Virus record (IMG/VR): IMGVR_UViG_3300045988_174062
Reading direction: 5' to 3' (one strand)
DNA length: 40,648 nucleotides
Source: a virus
Part shown: positions 25,031 through 39,726 of the stretch, piece by piece
Layout of the letters: the number at the start of each line of letters is the position of its first letter
Position numbering within the stretch: position 1 is the first letter of the stretch
The notes under the pieces: generated by a model
Seen by the model: the letters and a program-made list of their open reading frames with translations, nothing else
What the model was told of the DNA's origin: nothing
Database searches by the model: none
Made by a program: the position numbers and the translations under genes

Positions 25031-25972
25031 TCAATTTATTTTTCGCATCATAACATGGATATAAGGCATCCCTGTCCATTTATTTCTTGTTGCTTTAAAT
25101 CCAACAACTTTATATCCAGGATTTAATTTTTCCATTTCTTTTTCAATTAAGTTATGATCACTTTCCATCTTGAATATTTTTCTCTTTGATACTTTTTTAG
25201 ATGTAGTTATAATAGGCTCTTTTAATCCTTGACTACATCCCCAACGTTTTTTTCCTTTTGGGTCTTTTGATAGGTAGTTAGCTAAGTCAGTTAAATGTTT
25301 TTCATCAGGATCTATTCGTCTTATATTATTTCTTCTTCCATACTTCCAGCAGTTTTCAACTTGATCCATTGATAATTCAGAACTCATAATCATATGTACA
25401 TGATATTTTCCTTTGCCTTCTTTTGAAATCTCAATTACATACATATACTTAATTTTCTTGTACTTTTTCTTATTTATTTTGTGCGATAACTTTTTTCCTT
25501 CTTGGTGTACTTGAAGTTTCATGTATTCATAATTAAGTTTGTTTATGTATGCTCTTACGTGCTTTTTAGCTTCTTCATAACTTTTAGGTCTATTATCATT
25601 TCTGTAGTTAAGAGTTAAATAATAATCACCTTTTCCAAAGTTAGCATTTACTTTTCTTATGAAGTTCTTAACTGCATTTTTATTATTGAGATTCTTTTGA
25701 GCCTTCTTAGTAGTTTTAACTCTAAATTCTTCAGGTATATCTTTTTTTAAGAATACTGGGTACATTTCAAGTTCTCTTATTGGTCCTGATGTTATTGTTT
25801 TTGTTTCATATATACAATTACTTCTTGCATCTAGTATTTGATCTATATTGTTTAGACTTACAACTTCACTATCTATAGTTACTTGATGCTCCATCATTGA
25901 ATCTATTAAGTTTTCAAAATCAACTTCTGTATATAGATTTTTCTTTCTCCTTTGACTTTTTTTAACTGACAT
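25031..25972 (-). CDS. HUH-type rolling-circle replication initiator (Rep)
   Basis: 313 aa. KYHVHMIM is an HUH motif (H-hydrophobic-H). It is followed about 40 aa later by a Tyr motif, LANYLSKDPKGKK. The N-terminus is basic. Confidence 0.55.
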   Translation of the reverse strand: MSVKKSQRRKKNLYTEVDFENLIDSMMEHQVTIDSEVVSLNNIDQILDARSNCIYETKTITSGPIRELEMYPVFLKKDIPEEFRVKTTKKAQKNLNNKNAVKNFIRKVNANFGKGDYYLTLNYRNDNRPKSYEEAKKHVRAYINKLNYEYMKLQVHQEGKKLSHKINKKKYKKIKYMYVIEISKEGKGKYHVHMIMSSELSMDQVENCWKYGRRNNIRRIDPDEKHLTDLANYLSKDPKGKKRWGCSQGLKEPIITTSKKVSKRKIFKMESDHNLIEKEMEKLNPGYKVVGFKATRNKWTGMPYIHVMMRKIN

Positions 25973-29356: not shown

Positions 29357-29670
29357 TGATAATACTATTTGAACCAATTCTATTATTATCTAAATAAAAT
29401 AATCATAAAGAGTATGCAATAAAAGATGATGAATAAAAACAATGTAAAAAAATAAAATTCGAAATTACTTCTTAGTAGAAAAAAGCACTTGGACAACAAA
29501 AGAGTAAGAGGAAATTATATAACATTCCTCTACTCTATTTTTTAAGTTAATAGTATAAAACATAGTACTATCAATATGTATATGATATAATAATAGAGGA
29601 ATTGAAATCTATAGAGTGGTGTTTCATTCAAGAACTTACCTACTTCTTTGCAGGAAGGAGGTGAGGAAGT

Positions 29671-29850
29671 ATGGAACAAAAGATAATTGTCGGTATTATA
29701 AGTGCTATTGGTGCAATATGTCTTGGTCTAATGACTAATTATATATCTGACAAATTAAAAAGCCACTCTATGCGAGAGAGTGGCTTAGAGATTAAAATTA
29801 AGTTAAAATTTTTTGAACTTAATTTTAAACTTAAAAATTCTAAAAAATAA
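29671..29850 (+). CDS. Type I toxin candidate 1 (59-aa membrane peptide with Lys-rich tail)
   Basis: My own translation: MEQKIIVGIISAIGAICLGLMTNYISDKLKSHSMRESGLEIKIKLKFFELNFKLKNSKK. A GGAAGGAGGTGAGG RBS is present. An extended -10 TGATATAAT lies at 29583-29591 and a downstream terminator at 29942-29974. Confidence 0.6.
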   Translation: MEQKIIVGIISAIGAICLGLMTNYISDKLKSHSMRESGLEIKIKLKFFELNFKLKNSKK

Positions 29851-29898
29851 TTTTTAGGAACATCACTCTACTGCTAAATAGATTTCAATTCCTTTTAT
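29752..29898 (-). ncRNA. Candidate antitoxin sRNA 1 (antisense to the 3' half of toxin 1 mRNA)
   Basis: A minus-strand extended -10 TGTTATAAT lies at 29913-29905. The hairpin agccactct/agagtggct (29761-29785) is followed on the minus strand by a T-run, so the terminator is embedded in the toxin ORF. The ends are approximate. Confidence 0.4.
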
Positions 29899-29941
29899 AT
29901 TTATATTATAACATAATCAAATATGTTTTAAACTAATTTTT

Positions 29942-29974
29942 GAGATATAGATTAATTTCTATATCTCTTTTTTT
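29942..29974 (+). terminator. Rho-independent terminator (toxin 1 mRNA)
   Basis: gagatatag(a) ... (t)ctatatctc followed by T7. Confidence 0.65.
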
Positions 29975-30550: not shown

Positions 30551-30593
30551 ATGTACATTTAAAATTTAATATTAGAACATTGGAGGAATGAGT

Positions 30594-31535
30594 ATGAAAT
30601 TTGTTAGCGCAGGAATAGACTTAGGAAATAGTATGCTAAAGGCTACTAAAGAATTAAATGGTAAAAAGGTTAATGTGAAAGTTCCAAATAGAGTTCAGTA
30701 TGAAAAATCAATTAACCCTAAAGCAAAAAAAGTTGAATTTAATGGACAAACAATATACATAGGAGTCGGAGAACTTAACAATAATGTTCAAAAACATTCA
30801 AGAAAACATCTGTTAGAGCAAACTTTTGTTATGTTACATGAATTATATCCAAATGAATCAGCTTTAAAAGTTGATTTGAGATTAGGTTTACCACCAGTTC
30901 AATATTTTAATGATGCTCATAAAAGTAATTTTGCAAATATGTTCCCTATAGGTAAGCAATTTGATTTTACTGTAAATGGAATAAATAAGAAGGTTACTTT
31001 TGTATCGTTAGAAATATTTGTAGAAGGATATTCTGCTTTTGTTTCAAATATAGAAAGCATTGGAGATAATAAACAAGATATACTTTCAATTGATGTAGGT
31101 GGAGGTACAACTGATATATGTAGCTTCTCATATGATTATGATGATGAAATGTATTATCCAAATGATACTTTAACTGTACCAAAAGGAGTTATAGATTACG
31201 GTATAGAGATAGCCAATCATTTTAATGAAGTTGAAAATGCAGATATATCAAGTAAATATATAGATAATTTACTTAAAAATAATATTGAAGTAATTGAATA
31301 TAAAGGTAATAAATATAATCTTGAAAATTATTTATCTTCAATAGAGCCAATAGTAAATGACACTACTAATAAGATAACTAATAAGTTCGGTGAACTTGAT
31401 AGATATATTGTAGTTGGAGTTGGTGGTGGTTATAAGACATATAACAGAATGATTAAAGATAGAATAGCAGCAGAGATAGAATTAGATGAATATGCTCAAT
31501 TTTTCGGCAATTCAGAAGGATATTTAGAGCAATAA
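30594..31535 (+). CDS. parM: ParM/StbA-family actin-like segregation ATPase
   Basis: GIDLGNSMLKA (phosphate-1) and LSIDVGGGTTDI (phosphate-2) are actin-fold motifs. About 313 aa. I prefer the ATG at 30594 on RBS spacing. Confidence 0.8.
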   Translation: MKFVSAGIDLGNSMLKATKELNGKKVNVKVPNRVQYEKSINPKAKKVEFNGQTIYIGVGELNNNVQKHSRKHLLEQTFVMLHELYPNESALKVDLRLGLPPVQYFNDAHKSNFANMFPIGKQFDFTVNGINKKVTFVSLEIFVEGYSAFVSNIESIGDNKQDILSIDVGGGTTDICSFSYDYDDEMYYPNDTLTVPKGVIDYGIEIANHFNEVENADISSKYIDNLLKNNIEVIEYKGNKYNLENYLSSIEPIVNDTTNKITNKFGELDRYIVVGVGGGYKTYNRMIKDRIAAEIELDEYAQFFGNSEGYLEQ

Positions 31536-32230: not shown

Positions 32231-32539
32231 TTGCTAAAGAAACTAAAGAAAAATGATTATAATTGGACTGGAAAATACATTAAAGAATATAATCAAATGG
32301 TTTCATATTATGAGAAACAGTTAGAGGAAAAGAATAGGATCATCGACTCTTTAAGTATAGAAAATAAGAATTTAAAAAATAGCATAAAGTTTCAAGGGAA
32401 ACAGAAACAAATTTCAGATAAAGACATAAATAAAATAAGAAAATTAAAAAATGAAGGTAAGAGTTATAGTTACATATCGAGTGAAACGGGATGGAGCAAG
32501 GCAACTATAAGTAGAGTTATTAATAATAAAAATTATTAA
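32231..32539 (+). CDS. Coiled-coil protein with a resolvase-type C-terminal HTH only (no catalytic domain)
   Basis: 102 aa with a TTG start. The C-terminus KIRKLKNEGKSYSYISSETGWSKATISRVINNK looks like the HTH_7-type domain of serine recombinases. Confidence 0.55.
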   Translation: MLKKLKKNDYNWTGKYIKEYNQMVSYYEKQLEEKNRIIDSLSIENKNLKNSIKFQGKQKQISDKDINKIRKLKNEGKSYSYISSETGWSKATISRVINNKNY

Positions 32540-32625
32540 AAAAATAGTCGATAAAATAAACAAAATTTGTTTACAAAAACAACCAAAAATGGTATTATAA
32601 TATTAAAGTTGAGGAGGGTAAGACA

Positions 32626-32979
32626 ATGAAAGTAACTGAATTTGGAAAATTCTCAAGAAAATTACGAATTGAGAATGATGAATTACTTAGAGATATGGCT
32701 AATAAGCTAGGTGTTACAGCTTCTTATTTATCTGCTGTAGAAATAGGTAAAAGAAATATACCAAAAAAATGGGAAAATATTATTGTTAACGCTTATCAGC
32801 TTGATAATAGTAAAGCCTTGGAATTAAGAGAGTCAATAGAGTACTCTATAAAAGTAATAAATATAGAGGTAGAACAATTAAATAATGAAGATAAAAATTT
32901 AATATTTATGTTAGCTAGAAAGGTTAATAATCTTGATGAAAAAGATAAAAATGAATTAAGAGAAATTTTATTTAGGTAA
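32626..32979 (+). CDS. XRE-family HTH protein (ImmR-like partner of the metallopeptidase)
   Basis: FGKFSRKLRIENDELLRDMANKLGVTASYLSAVEIGKRNIP is an XRE HTH. A GAGGAGGG RBS is present. Confidence 0.75.
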   Translation: MKVTEFGKFSRKLRIENDELLRDMANKLGVTASYLSAVEIGKRNIPKKWENIIVNAYQLDNSKALELRESIEYSIKVINIEVEQLNNEDKNLIFMLARKVNNLDEKDKNELREILFR

Positions 32980-32992
32980 AGAGGTGATAGAT

Positions 32993-33538
32993 TTGTCCTA
33001 TAAAACCAGGCCAAGATCTATAAAAGAAATACGCAATAAAGCAGAGATAGTTAGATCAATTATCCAAATTACAACAAACACATCTGGTGATAGTATAGAT
33101 ATTTTAAGGTTTGTGGAAAATGAAATAAGAGATAAAATAGATGAAAATTTCAATTTTATAGTATGTACTGAAGATGAGATGAAATCTAACTATGGAACAA
33201 CTTATTTAAATAAAAATACTATATGTATACGTGAAGATGTATACTATAGAGCTTGTGATGGTAATAGTAGAGATTTATTTACTATAGCCCATGAGTTAGG
33301 ACATTTATTTCTTCATTCGAATCAAAATGTTGAGTTAGCTAGGTCATCATCAGACGTGAAATTATATGAAGATGCAGAATGGCAAGCTAATACATTTGCT
33401 GCAGAATTGCTTATGCCTGCTAAATTAATAACTGAATGTGATACTCATTTTACTTTGATGAATCGATTTGGAGTTTCATATGAAGCAGCAGATATAAGAT
33501 TGAAAAAATTAGGTATTTATAACACTCAGTGTTGTTGA
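32993..33538 (+). CDS. ImmA/IrrE-family zinc metallopeptidase (COG2856-like)
   Basis: The HEXXH motif TIAHELGHLFLH plus downstream EWQANTFAAELLMP. The start is ambiguous: TTG at 32993 is preferred on RBS spacing, against the track's GTG at 32984. Confidence 0.8.
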   Translation: MSYKTRPRSIKEIRNKAEIVRSIIQITTNTSGDSIDILRFVENEIRDKIDENFNFIVCTEDEMKSNYGTTYLNKNTICIREDVYYRACDGNSRDLFTIAHELGHLFLHSNQNVELARSSSDVKLYEDAEWQANTFAAELLMPAKLITECDTHFTLMNRFGVSYEAADIRLKKLGIYNTQCC

Positions 33539-33565
33539 TATAAATATAAATAAAATAAAATAAAA

Positions 33566-33624
33566 AAAGTCTATTTGTCGATAGACTTTGTAAAAAGATT
33601 AAACTAAATTTGTCGATTTAGTTT
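33566..33624 (+). other. Twin stem-loops with identical TTGTCG loops
   Basis: aaagtctat-TTGTCG-atagacttt (33566-33589) and aaactaaat-TTGTCG-atttagttt (33601-33624). Both have 9-bp stems and they lie 35 bp apart. Confidence 0.6.
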
Positions 33625-33705
33625 TGTATATTTAAATATCACTAAATAACATTGTATACAAATTATTATCTTTTTGCAATTATTTTATTTGGAAAGGAGA
33701 TAATA

Positions 33706-33834
33706 ATGTACATTTTTAGAGCTTCTAAAACTGTAAATGGACAAAAAATATATGCTAAAGATTATGGAAAAAAAGCATTCCCTATATGGGTAGGTCCTAA
33801 AGGAAAACAAGAGAAGAATAAAATAAAAAAATAA
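33706..33834 (+). CDS. Small basic protein (42 aa)
   Basis: A GGAAAGGAG RBS lies upstream. Product: MYIFRASKTVNGQKIYAKDYGKKAFPIWVGPKGKQEKNKIKK. Confidence 0.4.
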   Translation: MYIFRASKTVNGQKIYAKDYGKKAFPIWVGPKGKQEKNKIKK

Positions 33835-33904
33835 GAAAATATATATTAAAATATAACTAAATATATACTGTTTATTTTTATATATTTTGTAGTATAATAT
33901 AAAT

Positions 33905-34036
33905 ATAAAAGGAACTTCAATCTATTTGCACTAGAGTGATGTTTCCAAAACTTTAATTTTTGGTAATTTTGAACTTGATTTTTATTTCAAGTTCCACGCC
34001 ACTCTTAGTTTTCCTAGAACTAGAGTGGCTTTTTAA
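33905..34036 (+). ncRNA. Candidate antitoxin sRNA 2
   Basis: Promoter ...ttttgtagTATAAT (33893-33898). The terminator gccactct (33998-34005) / agagtggc (34022-34029) plus T5 is embedded in the toxin 2 ORF. The ends are approximate. Confidence 0.4.
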
Positions 34037-34117
34037 TTTGTCGGATATGTAGTTAGTCAATAGACCAAGACATATTGTGCAAATAGCACCTATGACAATA
34101 TTTATCATTTGTTCCAT
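33953..34117 (-). CDS. Type I toxin candidate 2 (54 aa; paralog of toxin 1)
   Basis: My own translation: MEQMINIVIGAICTICLGLLTNYISDKLKSHSSSRKTKSGVELEIKIKFKITKN. A GGAAGGAGGTGAG RBS is present. The promoter TGATATAAT lies on the minus strand at 34207-34199. Confidence 0.6.
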   Translation of the reverse strand: MEQMINIVIGAICTICLGLLTNYISDKLKSHSSSRKTKSGVELEIKIKFKITKN

Positions 34118-34365
34118 ACTTCTCACCTCCTTCCGTTAAGAAGTAGGCTTTATATTTAGTATGGAAACACCACTCTATAAATTGAAATTCCTATATTTAT
34201 TATATCATATCCATATAAGTTTTTATATACTTCAATCATTTCTTTGTTTTTATTATATAAATAAAACAAAATTTCATAAATTAATAAATGAACAAAAAAC
34301 ATTAATAAATGTATATTTTGTTCATTTATTAATTTATGAACGAAATAAAATAATTAGAGCTATGC

Positions 34366-34467
34366 CGAAAACTAAAAAACGAAGGCAAAAGTTATAGTTA
34401 CATATCAAGTGTAACAGGCTGGAGCAAAGCAATTATAAGCAGAGTTATAAATAATAAAAATTATTAA
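34366..34467 (+). pseudogene. 3' remnant of a paralog of the 32231..32539 HTH gene
   Basis: About 88% identical over about 110 bp to 32440-32550. It would encode ...KLKNEGKSYSYISSVTGWSKAIISRVINNKNY*. An in-frame stop lies 5 codons upstream and there is no start codon. Confidence 0.7.
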
Positions 34468-34495
34468 AAAAATAGTATTATTTAACTGAAATATA

Positions 34496-34524
34496 TTGAC
34501 TCACCGTAACGGTTATGTTATAAT
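34496..34524 (+). promoter_or_regulatory. Near-consensus sigma-A promoter
   Basis: TTGACT (34496-34501), N17 ending in TGT (extended -10), TATAAT (34519-34524). Confidence 0.65.
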
Positions 34525-34551
34525 ATAAATATAGAAAGGGAGGTGAAGAAA

Positions 34552-34818: not shown

Positions 34819-34998
34819 ATGAGTAAAAAAAGATTAAAAGTAAATTTTAATAAAGGTGGTAATGGTGGAGTTAGTGCAAAGCTAACTCTTCCAATAACAA
34901 TGGTTAGAGAATTAGGAATTGATGAAGAAAATAAGTTCATTGATGTAGTTTGTGAAGATGGCAAAATAATAATTGTTAAATCAGAAACTCAAGAATAG
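34819..34998 (+). CDS. AbrB/MazE/SpoVT-type DNA-binding protein (59 aa)
   Basis: My own translation: MSKKRLKVNFNKGGNGGVSAKLTLPITMVRELGIDEENKFIDVVCEDGKIIIVKSETQE. The pattern G..S..LTLP....RELGI.....I.V..EDGKIII.K is the looped-hinge-helix fold signature. Confidence 0.6.
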   Translation: MSKKRLKVNFNKGGNGGVSAKLTLPITMVRELGIDEENKFIDVVCEDGKIIIVKSETQE

Positions 34999-35081
34999 TA
35001 TAAATATATTATAATAATATGAAAAAAATACATTAAAATATATACTGTGTATTTTTCTGCATTTTGTAGTATAATAAAAAC

Positions 35082-35192
35082 ATAGAAATAAAAAAGAGAA
35101 ATTATAATCTAGTGGAATAGAGTGTGATTTCTATAAATACATGTTTTTATTTATTAGAATCACTCTTATTGCCAGTAAGAGTGATTTTTAAT
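35082..35192 (+). ncRNA. Candidate antitoxin sRNA 3
   Basis: The promoter ...ttttgtagTATAAT (35070-35075) is homologous to the sRNA 2 promoter region. The terminator is aatcactctta (35158-35168) / taagagtgatt (35176-35186) plus T-run. It overlaps the 3' end of toxin 3. Confidence 0.4.
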
Positions 35193-35269
35193 TTATCATA
35201 AATAAATGCTCCGATGATGCTAATGATTATAGCATCAGAGTTATTTAATAATAACTTTAAAATTTCCAT
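35147..35269 (-). CDS. Type I toxin candidate 3 (40 aa)
   Basis: I prefer the ATG at 35269 (AAAGGAGGTG RBS). Product: MEILKLLLNNSDAIIISIIGAFIYDKLKITLTGNKSDSNK. The promoter TGTTATAAT lies on the minus strand at 35374-35366. Confidence 0.5.
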   Translation of the reverse strand: MEILKLLLNNSDAIIISIIGAFIYDKLKITLTGNKSDSNK

Positions 35270-35501
35270 ACTTACACCTCCTTTCTTTCGTGAAAGTAGG
35301 TGTTTTTTCTTTTGTATAGAAATCATCACTCTTAGATTATAATTTCTCTAAAAATATTATAACATAAAACCATTTACTAAAATAAAATAAATTGTTAACA
35401 GTTTTACTAAACACTTTATTTTCATAAATTAATTATTGAATAAAAATAAATATAAATGATATAATATTTTCATAAGTTAATTTATGAAAATAGGTGATGA
35501 A

Positions 35502-36140
35502 ATGAAAATTTTTAAAGAAATATTAGATACACATACTAAGATATGTACTTGTAGAAAAGTGTATAAAATAAATGATGATATTGAAATTATAATTGACCAG
35601 AAGGACAATAAATTAGTTATGTGGGGAGTTAATCATAAAACAGATAGGTTTTTAAATTTATCTACAAAGAGATTTAAAATGCTTATGGATGGATTTAAGT
35701 CAGTAGCTAGTGATTTATATTCAAGCGGAAGTAAGAATCAAAATTACTATTACATAACTATAGGTAAATCTATTAATAATTCTAAGGCTACAGAAAATAA
35801 TGATAAAGTAGATATTGATTTATTGAAAGAAGAAATAAAAAGTTTGAAAGAAAAGTTATTGTTGCTAGATAGTGAAAATAATAAGTTAAAGGAAGATCTG
35901 GAAAGATATAAAAGAGAGTATTTATATTATTCTAATGAATATACAAATTTGAAAAAAGAAAATGAAAAAGGAAAATTAAATATTCATAATGCTAGAGGAG
36001 CAGGTAGAAAGGCTAAATTTACTGATTGTCAAGTTGATGAGATAAAAAGACTTAGGGAAAGTGGAAATACTATAAACGAAATAGCAAAAGTATTTAATTG
36101 TTCAGTTGGTTTAATTCATAAATTAATAAATGAAAAATAA
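35502..36140 (+). CDS. Coiled-coil protein with a resolvase-type C-terminal HTH (no recombinase catalytic domain)
   Basis: I prefer the ATG at 35502 (AGGTGA RBS). The C-terminus ARGAGRKAKFTDCQVDEIKRLRESGNTINEIAKVFNCSVGLIHKLINEK is HTH_7-like. The extended -10 TGATATAAT lies at 35457-35465. Confidence 0.6.
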   Translation: MKIFKEILDTHTKICTCRKVYKINDDIEIIIDQKDNKLVMWGVNHKTDRFLNLSTKRFKMLMDGFKSVASDLYSSGSKNQNYYYITIGKSINNSKATENNDKVDIDLLKEEIKSLKEKLLLLDSENNKLKEDLERYKREYLYYSNEYTNLKKENEKGKLNIHNARGAGRKAKFTDCQVDEIKRLRESGNTINEIAKVFNCSVGLIHKLINEK

Positions 36141-36286
36141 ATCTAAAAACATACAATATATTCATTTATTAATTTATAAACAAAATATATATGAAATTTA
36201 TATGGCATAAAAGTATTAGTTTTATGCCTATATTGAAATTTCAACGTTTTATAGAATTTAAGAACTGACATTACCAGTTTTCAACA

Positions 36287-36873: not shown

Positions 36874-37818
36874 CTAAGAATGAACTCTTCTATAGAAATT
36901 CATTCCTATTTTAATACTTTCTTGATCTTTAGGGTCATCTCCATAAGGATAAGATCCATTCCATTTACCCCACTCAGGCTTATTTGTACCGGCTTGTGCT
37001 TGAGCATATCCAGCAGCCCTTTGTAGTAATTCATCTGTATATTTAAAACATTTACCAACATATCCATAAAGTATGTTGCCTGGAGAATCTCCTCTTACAA
37101 CTTTATTATCAAATATATAATTTGTTTTACTACTCCATCCTTGATTTTTTAAATCTAATTCTCCATTATTTCTAACTAAATTATAAAATACATATAATTG
37201 AGCCGGAGTAGAAAGTTTACTATATTGTTCTTTATATTTATGTTCATATTTTACAAAAAGAGATAATAATTTATCTGTAATATTTTTTAAATTTGATCCT
37301 TCTATAAGTTTTTTCCAAGTAGCAGGTCCTACCATTCCATCTACAGTTAATCCAGATGCTTGTTGGAATTTTTTTACTTCTCTTTGTGTAGCAGGACCAA
37401 AATATCCATCTGCAGAGTCTAAACTATACCAAAGAGATATAAGTTTCTTTTGAACAGATTTAACGTCTTCACCATACATTTGTGGACTTGTTAATTTTAG
37501 TACTCTTGTATATCCAGCTCCTGAACTAGAAGGTTTAGGTTTAGCAGTTGAGCTAAATAATTTATTCCAAGTAGCAGGACCAACTGATCCATCTACTGCT
37601 AAACCATTAACTCCTTGGAAATCTTTAACTGCAGCGACTCCTGTTGGACCATAGTATCCATCTACTGTTCCTGCACTATACTTTAATTCGTTTAATCTTC
37701 TTTGAACAGCTTTGACATCCTCACCATACATTTGTGGACTTGTTAATTTTAGTACTCTTGTATAAGATACACGAGCCTCGATATCAGTCTTTTCTAATAT
37801 TAATTCTTTTTCTTTCAT
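36874..37818 (-). CDS. Signal-less protein with two PG_binding_1-type repeats and an uncharacterised C-terminal effector-like domain
   Basis: 314 aa. YTRVLKLTSPQMYGEDVK...VDGY(Y/F)GP...V..FQ...GL.VDG.VGPATW.KL is repeated twice (peptidoglycan-binding domain 1 signature). The C-terminal ~135 aa carry GNILYGYVG and YPYGDDPKDQESIKIG. From memory these resemble a polymorphic-toxin C-terminal module (Ntox44-like); this is unverified. There is no N-terminal signal peptide. Confidence 0.6.
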   Translation of the reverse strand: MKEKELILEKTDIEARVSYTRVLKLTSPQMYGEDVKAVQRRLNELKYSAGTVDGYYGPTGVAAVKDFQGVNGLAVDGSVGPATWNKLFSSTAKPKPSSSGAGYTRVLKLTSPQMYGEDVKSVQKKLISLWYSLDSADGYFGPATQREVKKFQQASGLTVDGMVGPATWKKLIEGSNLKNITDKLLSLFVKYEHKYKEQYSKLSTPAQLYVFYNLVRNNGELDLKNQGWSSKTNYIFDNKVVRGDSPGNILYGYVGKCFKYTDELLQRAAGYAQAQAGTNKPEWGKWNGSYPYGDDPKDQESIKIGMNFYRRVHS

Positions 37819-37933: not shown

Positions 37934-38455
37934 TTATTTAAGATATATTTTTTTTATTTTATTTAAAGCTCTTACATGGGTTTTATGAATAGCCTGTCTT
38001 GATACGCCAAGCTTTCGTCCTACTTCTGATTCAGATTTATTATTTAAATATATATTCTTGATTACATTTTGTTCTTTAATAGTTAAGCTTTTAATAATAT
38101 CATTAAGAATGATATTACTTAAATCTTCTGTATATCCAATATTAAATACATCTTCATTTAAATATAAAGTATTATTATTTTTATTTTGATGAATTTTATT
38201 TATATGTATATATTGATACTTAATAGACTTAGCTATATATGAAATTATATATCTATCACTTTTTAAATTAACTAATTCTATAGGAATCTTATCTAATAAA
38301 ATAAATAAAAATAATGTTAGCTCATTTTTCATATCCTCATAACAGCTATTTCTTTGTAACTTATTAAGTAATGGATCAAATTTAAGTAGTATATCTAAGA
38401 ATTTATTTTTATCTCCCTTTTTAAATTCTTCTACTAACAAATAAATATATCTCAT
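37934..38455 (-). CDS. Small sigma-70-family factor, TcdR/UviA/BotR/TetR-like (group 5-like)
   Basis: I prefer the ATG at 38455 (AAGGAG RBS); the track start at 38515 lacks one. 173 aa. The region-2-like part is FLDILLKFDPLLNKLQRNSCYEDMKNELTLFLFILLDKI. The region-4 HTH is LTIKEQNVIKNIYLNNKSESEVGRKLGVSRQAIHKTHVRALNKIKKIY. The size and layout match clostridial toxin/bacteriocin sigma factors as I recall them. Confidence 0.65.
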   Translation of the reverse strand: MRYIYLLVEEFKKGDKNKFLDILLKFDPLLNKLQRNSCYEDMKNELTLFLFILLDKIPIELVNLKSDRYIISYIAKSIKYQYIHINKIHQNKNNNTLYLNEDVFNIGYTEDLSNIILNDIIKSLTIKEQNVIKNIYLNNKSESEVGRKLGVSRQAIHKTHVRALNKIKKIYLK

Positions 38456-38498
38456 AAAAAACTCCTTTTCGATTTTAAAAATCAAAAAGGAGTTTTTT
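38456..38498 (-). promoter_or_regulatory. 20-bp-arm hairpin plus U6 abutting the sigma start codon; the 3' arm contains the RBS
   Basis: The plus-strand arm 38456-38475 (aaaaaactccttttcgattt) pairs with 38479-38498 (aaatcaaaaaggagtttttt), with 1 mismatch and a 3-nt loop. On the minus-strand RNA the second arm carries AAGGAG, followed by UUUUUU and then AUG. Confidence 0.6.
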
Positions 38499-38505
38499 AT
38501 TGTAT

Positions 38506-38513
38506 TGTAAACC
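38506..38513 (-). promoter_or_regulatory. GGTTTACA box (-35-like) upstream of the sigma gene
   Basis: Minus-strand sequence ...agatGGTTTACAatacaATAAAAAActcc... With 17-bp spacing, the predicted start site would fall near the hairpin loop (about 38476). Confidence 0.45.
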
Positions 38514-38588
38514 ATCTTTAGACATTTTTTTACATTTTTTTCCGAATAATCTCATATTTCTTCAATATCATAAAATTTAATAGCCTAA

Positions 38589-39299
38589 CTATATAAGCTC
38601 TATATAGTCTGCAGATACATAACATGGTTTATTATTATACTTATAATCATACGTAGAGAACCAATTATTTAAGCAGTAGTTGACTTCTAATACAGTACCT
38701 TTTGGTATTGTTTTAATTATTTTACTAGATGTACTTCTTTCATTTCTTATATTTAAATTTGCTGTTGTTCTAGCTTTTCTATTATAATCTCCATTTTTAT
38801 ATTTAATTGAAGAATTAGATGTAGGTGCTCCTTTTAATTCTTTTTCGATTAGCTTCTTAAATTCATTCATATTAGTTCTATGAGGACAGTTCTTATTAGC
38901 AAAATCTCTGTGAGCCTTAACTCTATTAATTCCCCAACCATATTTTCTAAGAAGTTCAGCGACTACTTTAGCTGCTCTTTTTTCAGCAGCAATAAACTTA
39001 GTTCCGCCATCTTTAGAATAACAAATTTCTATAGATATATGATTTCTATTACCTTGACCACTTCCATCTCCACAACTCCAAGAGTTTCTATCAAGTGGTA
39101 ATCCTTGTATAGCTTCTACATCATCAACTGCTATATGAAAACTTACTTTATTATTATTAGATTTCATATAAGAAATCTCATTTTTAGCACTAGCATTGTT
39201 ATATGTATTATGTATAGATATTCCAATTGGATTCATACTATATGGACATTTTATATTATACTTGCTACTTTTTACTAAATCTTGTTTTATTAAACTCAT
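38589..39299 (-). CDS. Endolysin: N-acetylmuramoyl-L-alanine amidase (Amidase_2/PGRP type) with a C-terminal SH3b-like domain
   Basis: GISIHNTYN...FHIAVDD...HRDF..KNCPHR are Zn-amidase motifs. The C-terminus ARTTANLNIRNERSTSSKIIKTIPKGTVLEV is SH3-like. It lies directly after the holin. Confidence 0.85.
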   Translation of the reverse strand: MSLIKQDLVKSSKYNIKCPYSMNPIGISIHNTYNNASAKNEISYMKSNNNKVSFHIAVDDVEAIQGLPLDRNSWSCGDGSGQGNRNHISIEICYSKDGGTKFIAAEKRAAKVVAELLRKYGWGINRVKAHRDFANKNCPHRTNMNEFKKLIEKELKGAPTSNSSIKYKNGDYNRKARTTANLNIRNERSTSSKIIKTIPKGTVLEVNYCLNNWFSTYDYKYNNKPCYVSADYIELI

Positions 39300-39300
39300 A

Positions 39301-39726
39301 TTAATTTACCTCGCTTTTATTATTATATTTTTTATTTCCTTGCTTAAGTTGAACTAATGCATCAACTAATTGCTGTGGAATAGGGAGACCTATAGATGCT
39401 GCATTCTCTAAAATACTAGCGCCTTCATTAGCTGTGTACCAAAAACAAACTAAGCTTCTAAATATAAAGCCATGTCCAATTAATCGATCTATTAGTACAG
39501 CTAATATCATTATGTAAAATATAGTTACTTTTTTATAAATACCTCTAAATCCATATTCACTGCTTAATTGTTTATAAAAATATGCTCTAGTTATTCCAGT
39601 AATATAATCAATAAACATTACGGTAACTAATGTCATTAAAGGTATATCCCATGCTCCAAACAGCCACACAAACACTGTTCCTAATAAAGATATGATATAG
39701 TTAATTTTTTCATTATAAATATTCAT
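39301..39726 (-). CDS. Holin (toxin-secretion / phage-lysis holin family, TcdE-type)
   Basis: 141 aa with three hydrophobic helices. DYITGI...YGFRGIYKKV..F..I..A...D...G...FR....F.Y.ANEG.SILEN is characteristic of this holin family. Confidence 0.8.
   Translation of the reverse strand: MNIYNEKINYIISLLGTVFVWLFGAWDIPLMTLVTVMFIDYITGITRAYFYKQLSSEYGFRGIYKKVTIFYIMILAVLIDRLIGHGFIFRSLVCFWYTANEGASILENAASIGLPIPQQLVDALVQLKQGNKKYNNKSEVN

Follow-up and report, generated by a model that had tools for sequence, protein, structure and literature searches.

Cassette 2, a segment of about 320 bp within a 40,648-nt stretch of viral DNA (the whole stretch analysed, hereafter the window), is very probably a type I toxin-antitoxin (TA) module of the C. 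difficile phage/plasmid family, carried by a plasmid-like temperate phage of gut Peptostreptococcaceae, and its most likely role is the killing of cells that lose the element. The family itself is known already, and what is new here is some family-level detail. The sequence anatomy of the cassette, its homology, its conserved base-pairing and the recombination between copies were observed directly. The features that an earlier sequence-only reading had reported for cassette 2 were all found at their places in the sequence, and the elements of the cassette are the following:

33893-34209, toxin on the minus strand: cassette 2, about 320 bp
34199-34207, minus strand: toxin 2 promoter, an extended -10 box TGATATAAT read in the sequence, with a predicted transcription start near 34192
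33900-34192, minus strand: toxin mRNA 2 with both ends predicted, about 290 nt, of which 75 nt are 5' UTR
34162-34191, minus strand: 5' arm of the long-range helix, AGGAAUUUCAAUUUAUAGAGUGGUGUUUCC, from inverted repeats and covariation
34138-34147, minus strand: anti-SD element CCUACUUCUU, pairing with the SD or the start-codon region in every fold
34115-34134, minus strand: toxin 2 ribosome-binding site GGAAGGAGGUG (GGAAGGAGGTG, 34134-34124) and start codon (34117-34115), read in the sequence
33953-34117, minus strand: toxin 2 CDS, an ORF of 54 aa and a stop codon, whose product has a hydrophobic helix at the N-terminus and a tail rich in Lys
33971-33994, minus strand: second hairpin conserved in the family (GAACUUGA..UCAAGUUC), lying in the 3' portion of the CDS, from covariation
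33910-33946, minus strand: 3' arm of the long-range helix with a U-rich tail after it, from inverted repeats, folding and covariation; the opposite strand is the antitoxin 5' end
33893-33898, plus strand: antitoxin 2 promoter, -10 box TATAAT preceded by TAG, not TGn, read in the sequence
33905-34034, plus strand: antitoxin RNA 2 with both ends predicted, about 130 nt, complementary along its whole length to the last 130 nt of toxin mRNA 2
33998-34034, plus strand: antitoxin 2 intrinsic terminator, GCCACUCU-U-AGUU..AACU-AGAGUGGC followed by U5, located in the toxin CDS, from folding

The minus-strand toxin ORF that had been claimed runs from an ATG at 34117-34115 to a stop codon at 33955-33953 and encodes a 54-aa peptide, MEQMINIVIGAICTICLGLLTNYISDKLKSHSSSRKTKSGVELEIKIKFKITKN. 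As in the family, the peptide is shorter than 60 aa, has a hydrophobic N-terminus (Kyte-Doolittle 15-residue maximum of 2.55, residues 7-21) and a Lys-rich C-terminal part (nine K+R, net charge +7), and CDMH1 gp18 has the same hydrophobicity/charge profile. Toxin 2 matches the NCBIfam model NF047374 'CD_typeI_toxin' with 29.5 bits (E = 7e-7), a score that is significant yet below the equivalog cut-off of 60 bits, and the peptide is therefore placed in a divergent 'MEQ' subfamily; the toxin of cassette 1 scores 19.2 bits. Bona fide members above this cut-off include CDMH1 gp18 (78.8 bits), phiMMP02 gp38 (82 bits) and phiSemix9P1 phi44 (88 bits). Toxin 2 has 32 homologs in public data, and the model matches every aligned toxin homolog (33/33). 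A Pfam search gave no match for toxin 2, Hok included, and only a sub-threshold match to DUF5362 for toxin 1.

Cassette 2 and the CDMH1 gp18 cassette can be aligned over their full length, with a homology that extends to the non-coding parts: the elements in register comprise both promoters, the 5' UTR, the AGAGTGG arm, the start-site region, the hairpin within the CDS and the 3' arm. By blastn, cassette 2 shares 68-69% identity over 312 nt with the cassettes of CDMH1, phiC2 and phiMMP01/03 (E = 1e-15 to 1e-18), and identical or near-identical cassette sequences were found repeatedly in many independent metagenomes. The predicted sizes for cassette 2 (toxin mRNA of about 290 nt, 5' UTR of 75 nt, antitoxin and overlap of about 130 nt) match the values measured in the family, namely 298-306 nt for the toxin mRNA, 83-88 nt for the 5' UTR, 134-140 nt for the antitoxin and 131-134 nt for the overlap (PMC5961336). 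The earlier reading of the locus as a type I TA module is thus borne out by the NF047374 match, by the full-length cassette alignment with CDMH1 gp18 and by these matching predicted sizes. A search of the whole window against Rfam returned no family at gathering score. A consensus promoter/terminator scan flagged neither the cassette 2 promoters, because these are extended -10 boxes without a -35, nor the hairpin, because of a 1-nt bulge in its stem; the promoter and terminator calls made here rest instead on family conservation and folding.

Covariation, assessed on 32 distinct cassettes, backs three features: a helix of about 30 bp that brings the two ends of the toxin mRNA together, a hairpin over the translation start, and the antitoxin terminator hairpin within the CDS. 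In the consensus structure 97.3% of the alignment cells are paired, and 27 pairs show double changes, versus 8.9 +/- 1.8 in shuffles (0/500) and 3-8 in slid controls. The predicted toxin mRNA 2 folds at -98.6 kcal/mol versus -51.8 +/- 4.1 in shuffles (z = -11.5, compared with -10.3 for cassette 1 and -10 for cassette 3), which is far beyond AT-rich low complexity, the trivial source of similarity for which the earlier reading had allowed. The flanking inverted repeats and 5'/3' fold-back that it described are present (33893-33925 with 34177-34209, 33 nt, 76%; 33932-33947 with 34162-34177, 16 nt, 94%) and are backed by covariation: the 5'-3' helix (columns 49-77 with 359-395) has double changes in 13 of its 28 pairs, with 97.6-97.9% of the alignment cells paired; columns 55/389 and 56/388 (UC...GA in the arms) are among the covarying pairs. 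Its non-Watson-Crick cells comprise 71 G.U versus 11 A.C, and the helix therefore belongs to the toxin-sense RNA. Minimum-energy folding of the three bona fide phage members named above yields this clamp as well, with 14-32 long-range pairs. The local hairpin of the 3' arm is weak (-8.6 kcal/mol), and the 3' end of toxin mRNA 2 is uncertain because it has no strong local terminator. In the second conserved hairpin (columns 255-262 with 292-299), 97.8% of the alignment cells are paired and two pairs show double changes.

At the 5' end of the toxin transcript, the TGnTATAAT of the promoter is invariant in the aligned cassettes (32/32), and the ribosome-binding site and start codon are invariant or nearly so in the family alignment. 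The predicted 75-nt UTR has a structured ribosome-binding site, with 92-96.5% of the alignment cells paired depending on the register of the start-site hairpin, which is ambiguous: the anti-SD hairpin in the RNAalifold register is paired in 96.5% of the cells and has double changes in four pairs, and the alternative register (SD/anti-SD plus AUG/CCAUAC) is paired in 92%, with covariation not beyond that of shuffles. In the predicted folds the translation start is still covered after removal of the 3' arm; this does not support a hok-like activation by 3' trimming, and it counts against the module as proposed in that the folds show no route to toxin translation.

On the opposite strand, a convergent antisense RNA is predicted from the sequence, with its own promoter, its own terminator and a 3' overlap of about 130 nt, at the right spacing and conserved or covarying in the 32 cassettes. 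The plus-strand TATAAT claimed earlier is present at 33893-33898; its context reads TAGTATAAT, without the TGn extension common to most family members, and since this extension and a recognisable -35 are both absent, the strength of the promoter is uncertain. The antitoxin promoters of cassettes 2 and 3 have about 80 bp of upstream sequence in common. Antitoxin RNA 2 has a fold z of -5.8. Its terminator hairpin is formed by GCCACTCT (33998-34005) pairing with AGAGTGGC (34022-34029), followed by T5 (34030-34034, plus strand); the stem predicted by RNAfold has 8+6 bp with a 1-nt bulge, and the same nucleotides code for the KSHS...SG motif of the toxin. At pair 220-251 of this hairpin, 16 cassettes have A-U and 15 have G-C, an Asn/Ser codon covarying with a synonymous Gly codon. 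Read on the sense strand, its non-Watson-Crick cells comprise 8 A.C and 0 G.U, that is, G.U on the antisense strand, which agrees with the role of antisense terminator that had been assigned to it. Taken over both structures, the strand asymmetry of G.U and A.C cells fits a clamp in the sense strand and a terminator in the antisense strand. Four copies of the motif AGAGUGG/CCACUCU are present in the cassette (5' arm, both arms of the in-CDS hairpin, 3' arm), and the motif never varies although its neighbours covary; pairing of the motif with two alternative partners would fit this invariance.

Two further copies of the cassette are found in the window, and cassettes 1 and 2 share a block identical in both:

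29583-29913, plus strand: cassette 1, the paralog in opposite orientation
29671-29850, plus strand: cassette 1 toxin CDS, 59 aa
29760-29786, minus strand: cassette 1 antitoxin terminator
29905-29913: cassette 1 antitoxin -10
34021-34042, minus strand: 22-bp block GACAAAUUAAAAAGCCACUCUA, among the longest exact runs that cassettes 1 and 2 share
35062-35372, minus strand: cassette 3, a third and divergent copy, oriented like cassette 2 (nhmmer E = 2e-17)

The paralogy proposed for cassettes 1 and 2 was upheld by alignment, with a mean column identity of 84% over about 420 columns for the DNA and 62% identity for the toxin proteins (E = 9e-18), and a profile built from 32 family cassettes recovers cassette 2 with E = 4e-101 and cassette 1 with E = 6e-75. 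Cassette 3, which was absent from the earlier list, has a 40-aa ORF (35147-35269) and the same RNA architecture as cassette 2; its peptide gave no match to NF047374, and in relatives the position is occupied by a 51-aa toxin of the MEQ type. The suggestion that cassettes 1 and 2 could cross-regulate each other did not hold up. Judged from the sequences, cross-regulation is unlikely, with an identity between the two of just 44% in the antitoxin-target core and 6% in the hairpin loop; the computed duplex energies are -90/-95 kcal/mol for the non-cognate pairs versus -218/-221 kcal/mol for the cognate ones. In the tested family, non-cognate antitoxins gave no rescue and only about three mismatches were tolerated.

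The inverted copies do recombine, as had been anticipated from their inverted homology. Indeed, metagenome contigs contain both reciprocal chimeric junctions (L048, L050-L052 and L034), with the intervening partition segment inverted in one of them, and the crossover site in the recombinant contigs is the shared 22-bp block, with breakpoints in L048 and L034. Assembly chimeras are an unlikely source of these contigs: the block is only 22 bp long, the same junction is found in at least four separate assemblies and the reciprocal junction is present.

Besides phage structural genes, the window has genes for a Rep protein and for a ParM-like partition protein; no integrase family was matched among the ORFs scanned, a subset of those of the window. 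Its relatives are stand-alone contigs of 38-41.5 kb. The cassettes lie in the lysogeny/accessory region, beside an ImmA/HTH module, and two of the three bracket the ParM partition module, while a holin (39301-39726) and endolysins are encoded separately, in the lysis module. A megablast search with positions 20000-40648 found nothing among phages and, among plasmids, the cassette only, with 87% identity to C. difficile pTW11.

Three other explanations were weighed against a TA module serving maintenance. The same module could have defence as its main role, through abortive infection or exclusion of competing phages or plasmids. CRISPR arrays adjoin family members and SigB co-regulates both (PMC5961336), the cassettes of the window sit in the lysogeny/accessory region next to the ImmA/HTH module, and three divergent copies on a 40-kb element seem more than maintenance alone needs. 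This role is nevertheless unlikely: the family functions that have been tested are plasmid stabilisation and prophage maintenance only, an anti-phage phenotype is not reported in the family papers, and two of the three cassettes flank the ParM module.

Far less probable still is a miniature mobile element, whose terminal repeats would serve as recombination or transposition ends with the RNA pairing being incidental. The cassette homology found in unrelated contexts ends within a few bases of the -10 boxes (34209, 33893), but such sharp borders are equally expected if the promoters are the outermost selected elements; likewise, within 20000-40648 only the cassette matches a public plasmid at high identity (87%, pTW11), and copy number varies among relatives, some of which have a different allele at the cassette 3 position. 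A MITE-like element is disfavoured by the repeats themselves, which tolerate G.U and not A.C (71 versus 11), as does an RNA helix of one strand and not DNA ends, and neither a transposase nor a target-site duplication was seen. It is about as improbable, or slightly more so, that the cassette is an inactive relic or encodes a small membrane protein for phage lysis timing (holin/antiholin) rather than an addiction toxin. The peptide does score below the curated NF047374 cut-off, two alleles elsewhere (L030 and L031) are visibly attenuated, with codon 3 turned into a stop and the ribosome-binding site weakened, and family similarity is lost in the cassette 3 peptide. Cassette 2, however, shows no damage to its ORF, its ribosome-binding site, either promoter or any helix; identical copies were found again across samples, the canonical holin and the endolysins lie elsewhere, in the lysis module, and the tested family members give growth arrest, not lysis.

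For the TA module, the transcription, toxicity, antitoxin route and maintenance role of cassette 2 are proposed from its homology to tested systems. Members of the family cause growth arrest, are rescued by the cognate antitoxin only, stabilise plasmids and help in the maintenance of phiCD630-1; growth arrest, cognate-only rescue, a membrane-located toxin and the combination of a short-lived antitoxin with a long-lived toxin mRNA have been shown only for members of C. difficile 630. In cassette 2, a constitutive extended -10 promoter would produce the minus-strand mRNA of about 290 nt encoding a 54-aa membrane peptide. This mRNA would be kept inert and stable by the clamp, in which its first 30 nt are paired with its last 37 nt, and the upstream CCUACUUCU element would mask the ribosome-binding site and start codon. 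The convergent plus-strand antitoxin of about 130 nt would start within the 3' arm of the clamp and end at the hairpin and U5 in the toxin CDS. By analogy with tested members, the hairpin loops of the antitoxin may touch the toxin mRNA first, and the contact may then grow to a full duplex that ousts the 5' arm and is cut by RNase III. With, again by analogy, a short-lived antitoxin and a long-lived toxin mRNA, cells losing the element would be arrested and the phage-plasmid would persist. The three cassettes have kept this architecture and have diverged in their antitoxin-target loops and core, so that they probably act independently.

Two more speculative and rather doubtful proposals are that the clamp and the antitoxin terminator form a conformational switch, by way of the invariant AGAGUGG/CCACUCU motif, and that the invariant 22-bp centre of the cassette is a recombination hot spot. 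If so, the switch would link antitoxin binding or 3' processing to toxin activation, and crossover at the hot spot would let co-resident copies exchange a half with the promoter and transmembrane part for one with the antitoxin and tail, yielding new toxin-antitoxin specificities and flipping the partition module of the phage-plasmid.

Through cassette 2, the experimentally defined C. difficile TA family now reaches plasmid-like phages of commensal gut Peptostreptococcaceae (Romboutsia, Paraclostridium), as a subfamily currently annotated 'hypothetical protein' or left uncalled. A testable comparative RNA model is obtained for the family, with a clamp joining the mRNA ends, a covered translation start and an antitoxin terminator within toxin codons. 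In addition, the recombinant contigs show co-resident copies swapping halves and inverting the intervening DNA, a half-exchange which bears on the diversification and independence of multiple addiction modules on one small replicon. The current picture of type I systems is unchanged by these findings.

Among known systems, the Bacillus subtilis prophage modules txpA/RatA, bsrG/SR4, bsrE/SR5 and yonT/SR6, with which the C. difficile family was compared in PMC5961336, resemble cassette 2 in being convergent, with overlapping 3' ends, a ribosome-binding site in a hairpin and antitoxin-triggered, RNase III-dependent decay. They differ in sharing no sequence homology with it. We know of no antitoxin terminator within the CDS and of no clamp of both transcript ends in txpA/RatA-type systems.

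With hok/Sok of plasmid R1 and AapA1/IsoA1 of Helicobacter pylori, cassette 2 shares a long-range 5'-3' pairing that would hold a stable toxin mRNA inactive and, by analogy, control by an unstable antisense RNA and post-segregational killing; T1TAdb lists 5'-3' interactions among the general features of type I systems (PMC8594479). However, Sok and IsoA1 target the 5' region, whereas antitoxin 2 overlaps the mRNA at its 3' end, the clamp's 3' arm included. Sequence homology to hok/Sok is absent, and cassette 2 falls outside Hok/Gef, with no Pfam match, no evident overlapping leader ORF and an antisense RNA at the 3' end, so that only the fold-back principle is common to hok/Sok and cassette 2.

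The closest counterparts are the C. difficile type I modules CD0956.2-RCd10, CD2907.1-RCd9 and CD2517.1-RCd8 (Maikova 2018, PMC5961336), CD0977.1-RCd11 and others (Peltier 2020, PMC7699646). Cassette 2 departs from them in its toxin, of the divergent 'MEQ...TNYI(S/Y)DKLK' subfamily (19-34 bits versus the 60-bit cut-off), and in that no CRISPR array is adjacent to it; the 5'-3' clamp and the covariation are not described in the C. difficile family papers, where structures are given as 'data not shown' (PMC5961336). Homologs on C. difficile and P. sordellii plasmids had been noted in the family literature, and the copy on pCS1-6 has a MEQ/MEP-type toxin. In common with the C. difficile modules, cassette 2 has a homologous toxin within a cassette homologous throughout, predicted convergent transcripts of like sizes with a 5' UTR of like length, a sequestered ribosome-binding site, a terminator hairpin coding for KSHS..SG, sigma-A type promoters for both RNAs and a location on Peptostreptococcaceae phages and plasmids.

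On sequence grounds, cassette 2 (33893-34209), carried on a phage-plasmid, joins a known family of type I toxin-antitoxin systems as a new and divergent member. The elements that the sequence-only reading had attributed to it, including the toxin open reading frame with its 54-aa peptide, the hairpin followed by T5, the TATAAT box and the flanking inverted repeats, were all found in place on inspection:

34117-33953, minus strand: toxin 2 open reading frame, 54 aa
6 nt upstream of the toxin 2 ATG, minus strand: GGAAGGAGGTG
34207-34199, minus strand: TGATATAAT
33998-34029: hairpin GCCACTCT/AGAGTGGC, followed by T5 on the plus strand
33893-33898, plus strand: TATAAT
33893-33925 with 34177-34209: flanking inverted repeat, pair 1
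33932-33947 with 34162-34177: flanking inverted repeat, pair 2

The toxin 2 peptide has a hydrophobic N-terminus and a Lys-rich tail, as in the C. difficile type I toxin family. NCBIfam model NF047374 ('CD_typeI_toxin') matches toxin 2 (29.5 bits, E = 7e-7) and toxin 1 (19.2 bits), both below its curated cut-off of 60 bits; the accepted members CDMH1 gp18, phiMMP02 gp38 and phiSemix9P1 phi44 score 78.8, 82 and 88 bits, respectively. Pfam and Rfam searches returned nothing useful. A distant DNA search retrieved the cassette from plasmids of C. difficile (pTW11, 87%), Paraclostridium and Terrisporobacter, and from the C. difficile phages CDMH1, phiC2 and phiMMP01/03 (68-69% across ~310 nt). The CD_typeI_toxin family has been characterised experimentally (Maikova et al. 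2018, PMC5961336; Peltier et al. 2020, PMC7699646), and the sizes predicted for cassette 2 match those measured (PMC5961336), namely a toxin mRNA of ~290 nt (298-306 nt in the family), a 5' UTR of 75 nt (83-88 nt), an antitoxin of ~130 nt (134-140 nt) and an overlap of ~130 nt (131-134 nt). The below-cut-off match, the cassette homology, the matching sizes and the peptide profile place cassette 2 in a divergent 'MEQ...TNYI(S/Y)DKLK' subfamily of this family, to which the copy on P. sordellii plasmid pCS1-6 also belongs; untested homologs on C. difficile and P. sordellii plasmids had already been noted by Peltier et al. (PMC7699646). The initial type I reading is thus borne out by the NF047374 match and by the homology to accepted C. 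difficile phage members.

The limits of homology between cassettes in unrelated contexts lie within a few bases of the two -10 boxes (window 34209 and 33893). In an alignment of 32 distinct full-length cassettes, drawn from genomes, IMG/VR and metagenomes, RNAalifold predicted 75 pairs, with compensatory changes in 27. For the 66 pairs within the transcript, 97.3% of cells are paired and double changes occur in 27 pairs, vs 8.9 +/- 1.8 in shuffles (0/500) and 3-8 in slid-partner controls. The helices are (a) the clamp, which joins the 5' and 3' ends of the toxin mRNA by ~28 pairs, including pair 55-389 (G-C in 15 cassettes, U-A in 11, A-U in 4) and pair 56-388 (A-U in 17, C-G in 12), (b) a hairpin over the ribosome-binding site and start codon, based on the conserved CCUACUUCU element, (c) the hairpin within the toxin coding sequence, in which pair 220-251 (A-U in 16 cassettes, G-C in 15) makes an Asn/Ser codon covary with a synonymous Gly codon, and (d) an additional hairpin in the 3' part of the coding sequence. 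Non-Watson-Crick cells, counted on the sense strand, tell apart the strand on which each helix acts: the clamp (71 G.U, 11 A.C) acts on the toxin-sense RNA, and the in-CDS hairpin (0 G.U, 8 A.C, a small count) on the antisense strand, as antitoxin terminator. Predicted minimum-energy folds contain 32 long-range clamp pairs in CDMH1 gp18, 30 in phiSemix9P1 phi44 and 14 in phiMMP02 gp38, so the clamp belongs to the family as a whole. Of structure, the published accounts consulted (including PMC5961336) mention only a sequestered ribosome-binding site ('data not shown'), and in T1TAdb 5'-3' interactions are counted among the general features of type I systems; the family gains an RNA model backed by covariation.

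Furthermore, each cassette has four copies of the motif AGAGUGG/CCACUCU (alignment columns 63-70, 220-227, 244-251 and 364-373; window 34169-34176, 34022-34029, 33998-34005 and 33932-33941). It is almost invariant while adjacent pairs covary freely, and its 5'-arm copy is invariant while the pairing partner drifts from C to U; the motif is constrained by something more than plain pairing.

Cassettes 1 and 2 had been proposed as paralogs. Indeed, mean column identity between cassette 2 and cassette 1 (29540-29960) is 84% in the DNA alignment, the toxin peptides are 62% identical (E = 9e-18), and low-complexity similarity was ruled out; against dinucleotide shuffles, both predicted toxin mRNAs are 10-11 standard deviations more stable. 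Identity is 100% in the -10 boxes and hairpin arms, 81-89% in both clamp arms, the start-site region and the N-terminal coding sequence, 44% in the C-terminal coding sequence plus 3' UTR, and 6% in the hairpin loop. The suggested cross-regulation of the two cassettes is unlikely, since the loops and core have diverged, the non-cognate duplexes are weaker (-90 and -95 vs -218 and -221 kcal/mol for cognate ones) and, in the tested family, non-cognate antitoxins gave no rescue 'despite extensive homology', three mismatches being tolerated. The inverted homology foreseen as a substrate for recombination fared better, both reciprocal chimeric junctions being present in contigs. In contig L048, the left flank of cassette 1 and its 5' half (100% identity) give way to the cassette 2 3' half with its 3' flank (100%), after which window 32541-30286 runs in reverse (99.4%); the crossover lies inside a 22-bp block, GACAAATTAAAAAGCCACTCTA, identical in both cassettes. 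The same junction recurs in L050, L051 and L052, and the reciprocal one (cassette 2 5' half with cassette 1 3' half) is found in L034 and L053. The chimeric peptides (P0006, P0017) are intact, and the chimeric mRNAs retain the clamp with two mismatches. Such junctions are expected if the DNA between the inverted cassettes has itself inverted, and the contigs fit an ongoing event or an old, fixed one; assembly error is an unlikely source. There is evidence that co-resident copies have diverged where specificity lies and recombine at the invariant cassette centre. In a Romboutsia MAG (L004, 2418-2784 and 2892-3241), two equally oriented cassettes stand in tandem with a gap of ~110 bp; the 3' half is cassette 1-type in one and cassette 2-like in the other.

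A profile built from the alignment revealed a third copy in the window (cassette 3, 35062-35372, minus strand, E = 2e-17), absent from the sequence-only reading. Cassette 3 carries its own TGTTATAAT box, a hairpin at the ribosome-binding site, a hairpin within the coding sequence that precedes T5 on the antisense strand, and a clamp whose arm sequence is new and covaries. The 40-aa peptide (35147-35269) has diverged out of reach of the family model; in relatives, this position encodes a MEQ-type toxin of 51 aa. TAGTATAAT and ~80 bp of sequence upstream (74% identity) recur in the antitoxin promoters of both cassette 2 (33814-33910) and cassette 3 (34991-35087), so either the duplicated stretch is longer than the cassette at this end or the two antitoxins have a common upstream regulatory region. 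Metagenome alleles L030 (1392-1735) and L031 (1392-1755) look like attenuated toxins: their ribosome-binding site is weakened (GGATG in place of GGAGG), and codon 3 is a stop, with an ATG in frame after it.

The window is a siphovirus-like temperate phage, encoding terminase, portal, major head protein, tape measure, holin and endolysins. It also encodes a replication initiator (25031-25972) and a ParM-like partition protein (30588-31535), the partition module being bracketed by cassettes 1 and 2. No integrase family match was obtained among the scanned ORFs, a subset of those in the window, and deposited phages and plasmids include no close relative at the DNA level; relatives are stand-alone contigs of 38-41.5 kb, including a Romboutsia faecis isolate contig and IMG/VR contigs. 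The window is read as a phage-plasmid of gut Peptostreptococcaceae. Around cassette 2, stretches 32542-33825 (HTH repressor, ImmA/IrrE peptidase, 60-aa ORF) and, on the opposite side, 34386-34541 (156 bp) are absent from close relatives L010 and L016-L019, and a 110-bp direct repeat (32439-32548, 34367-34476; 89% identity) lies near both borders. A ~69-bp palindromic element, TTCATAAATTAATAAATGAA ... TTCATTTATTAATTTATGAA, occurs at 34272-34340 (perfect 25-bp arms, ~65 bp upstream of the toxin 2 promoter), 35420-35489 and 36110-36187; these may be operator or centromere-like sites. ORF 37934-38515 (minus strand), between endolysin-like genes (36874-37818, 38589-39299) and near the holin (39301-39726), resembles sigma-70/ECF-type factors, with weak matches to a BotR/TcdR-type toxin-gene sigma factor model.

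The elements of cassette 2 are conserved and pair with one another. As in tested relatives, its toxin mRNA would be stable and translationally inert and its antitoxin short-lived; loop-loop contact would lead to a full duplex, cut by RNase III, and loss of the element would end antitoxin supply, letting the toxin arrest growth. Because the antitoxin begins within the 3' arm of the clamp, the full duplex would have to displace the 5' arm, which, we suggest, may also expose the mRNA 5' end to decay. A hok-like trimming model of activation is not supported: predicted 3'-truncated folds keep the start site covered.
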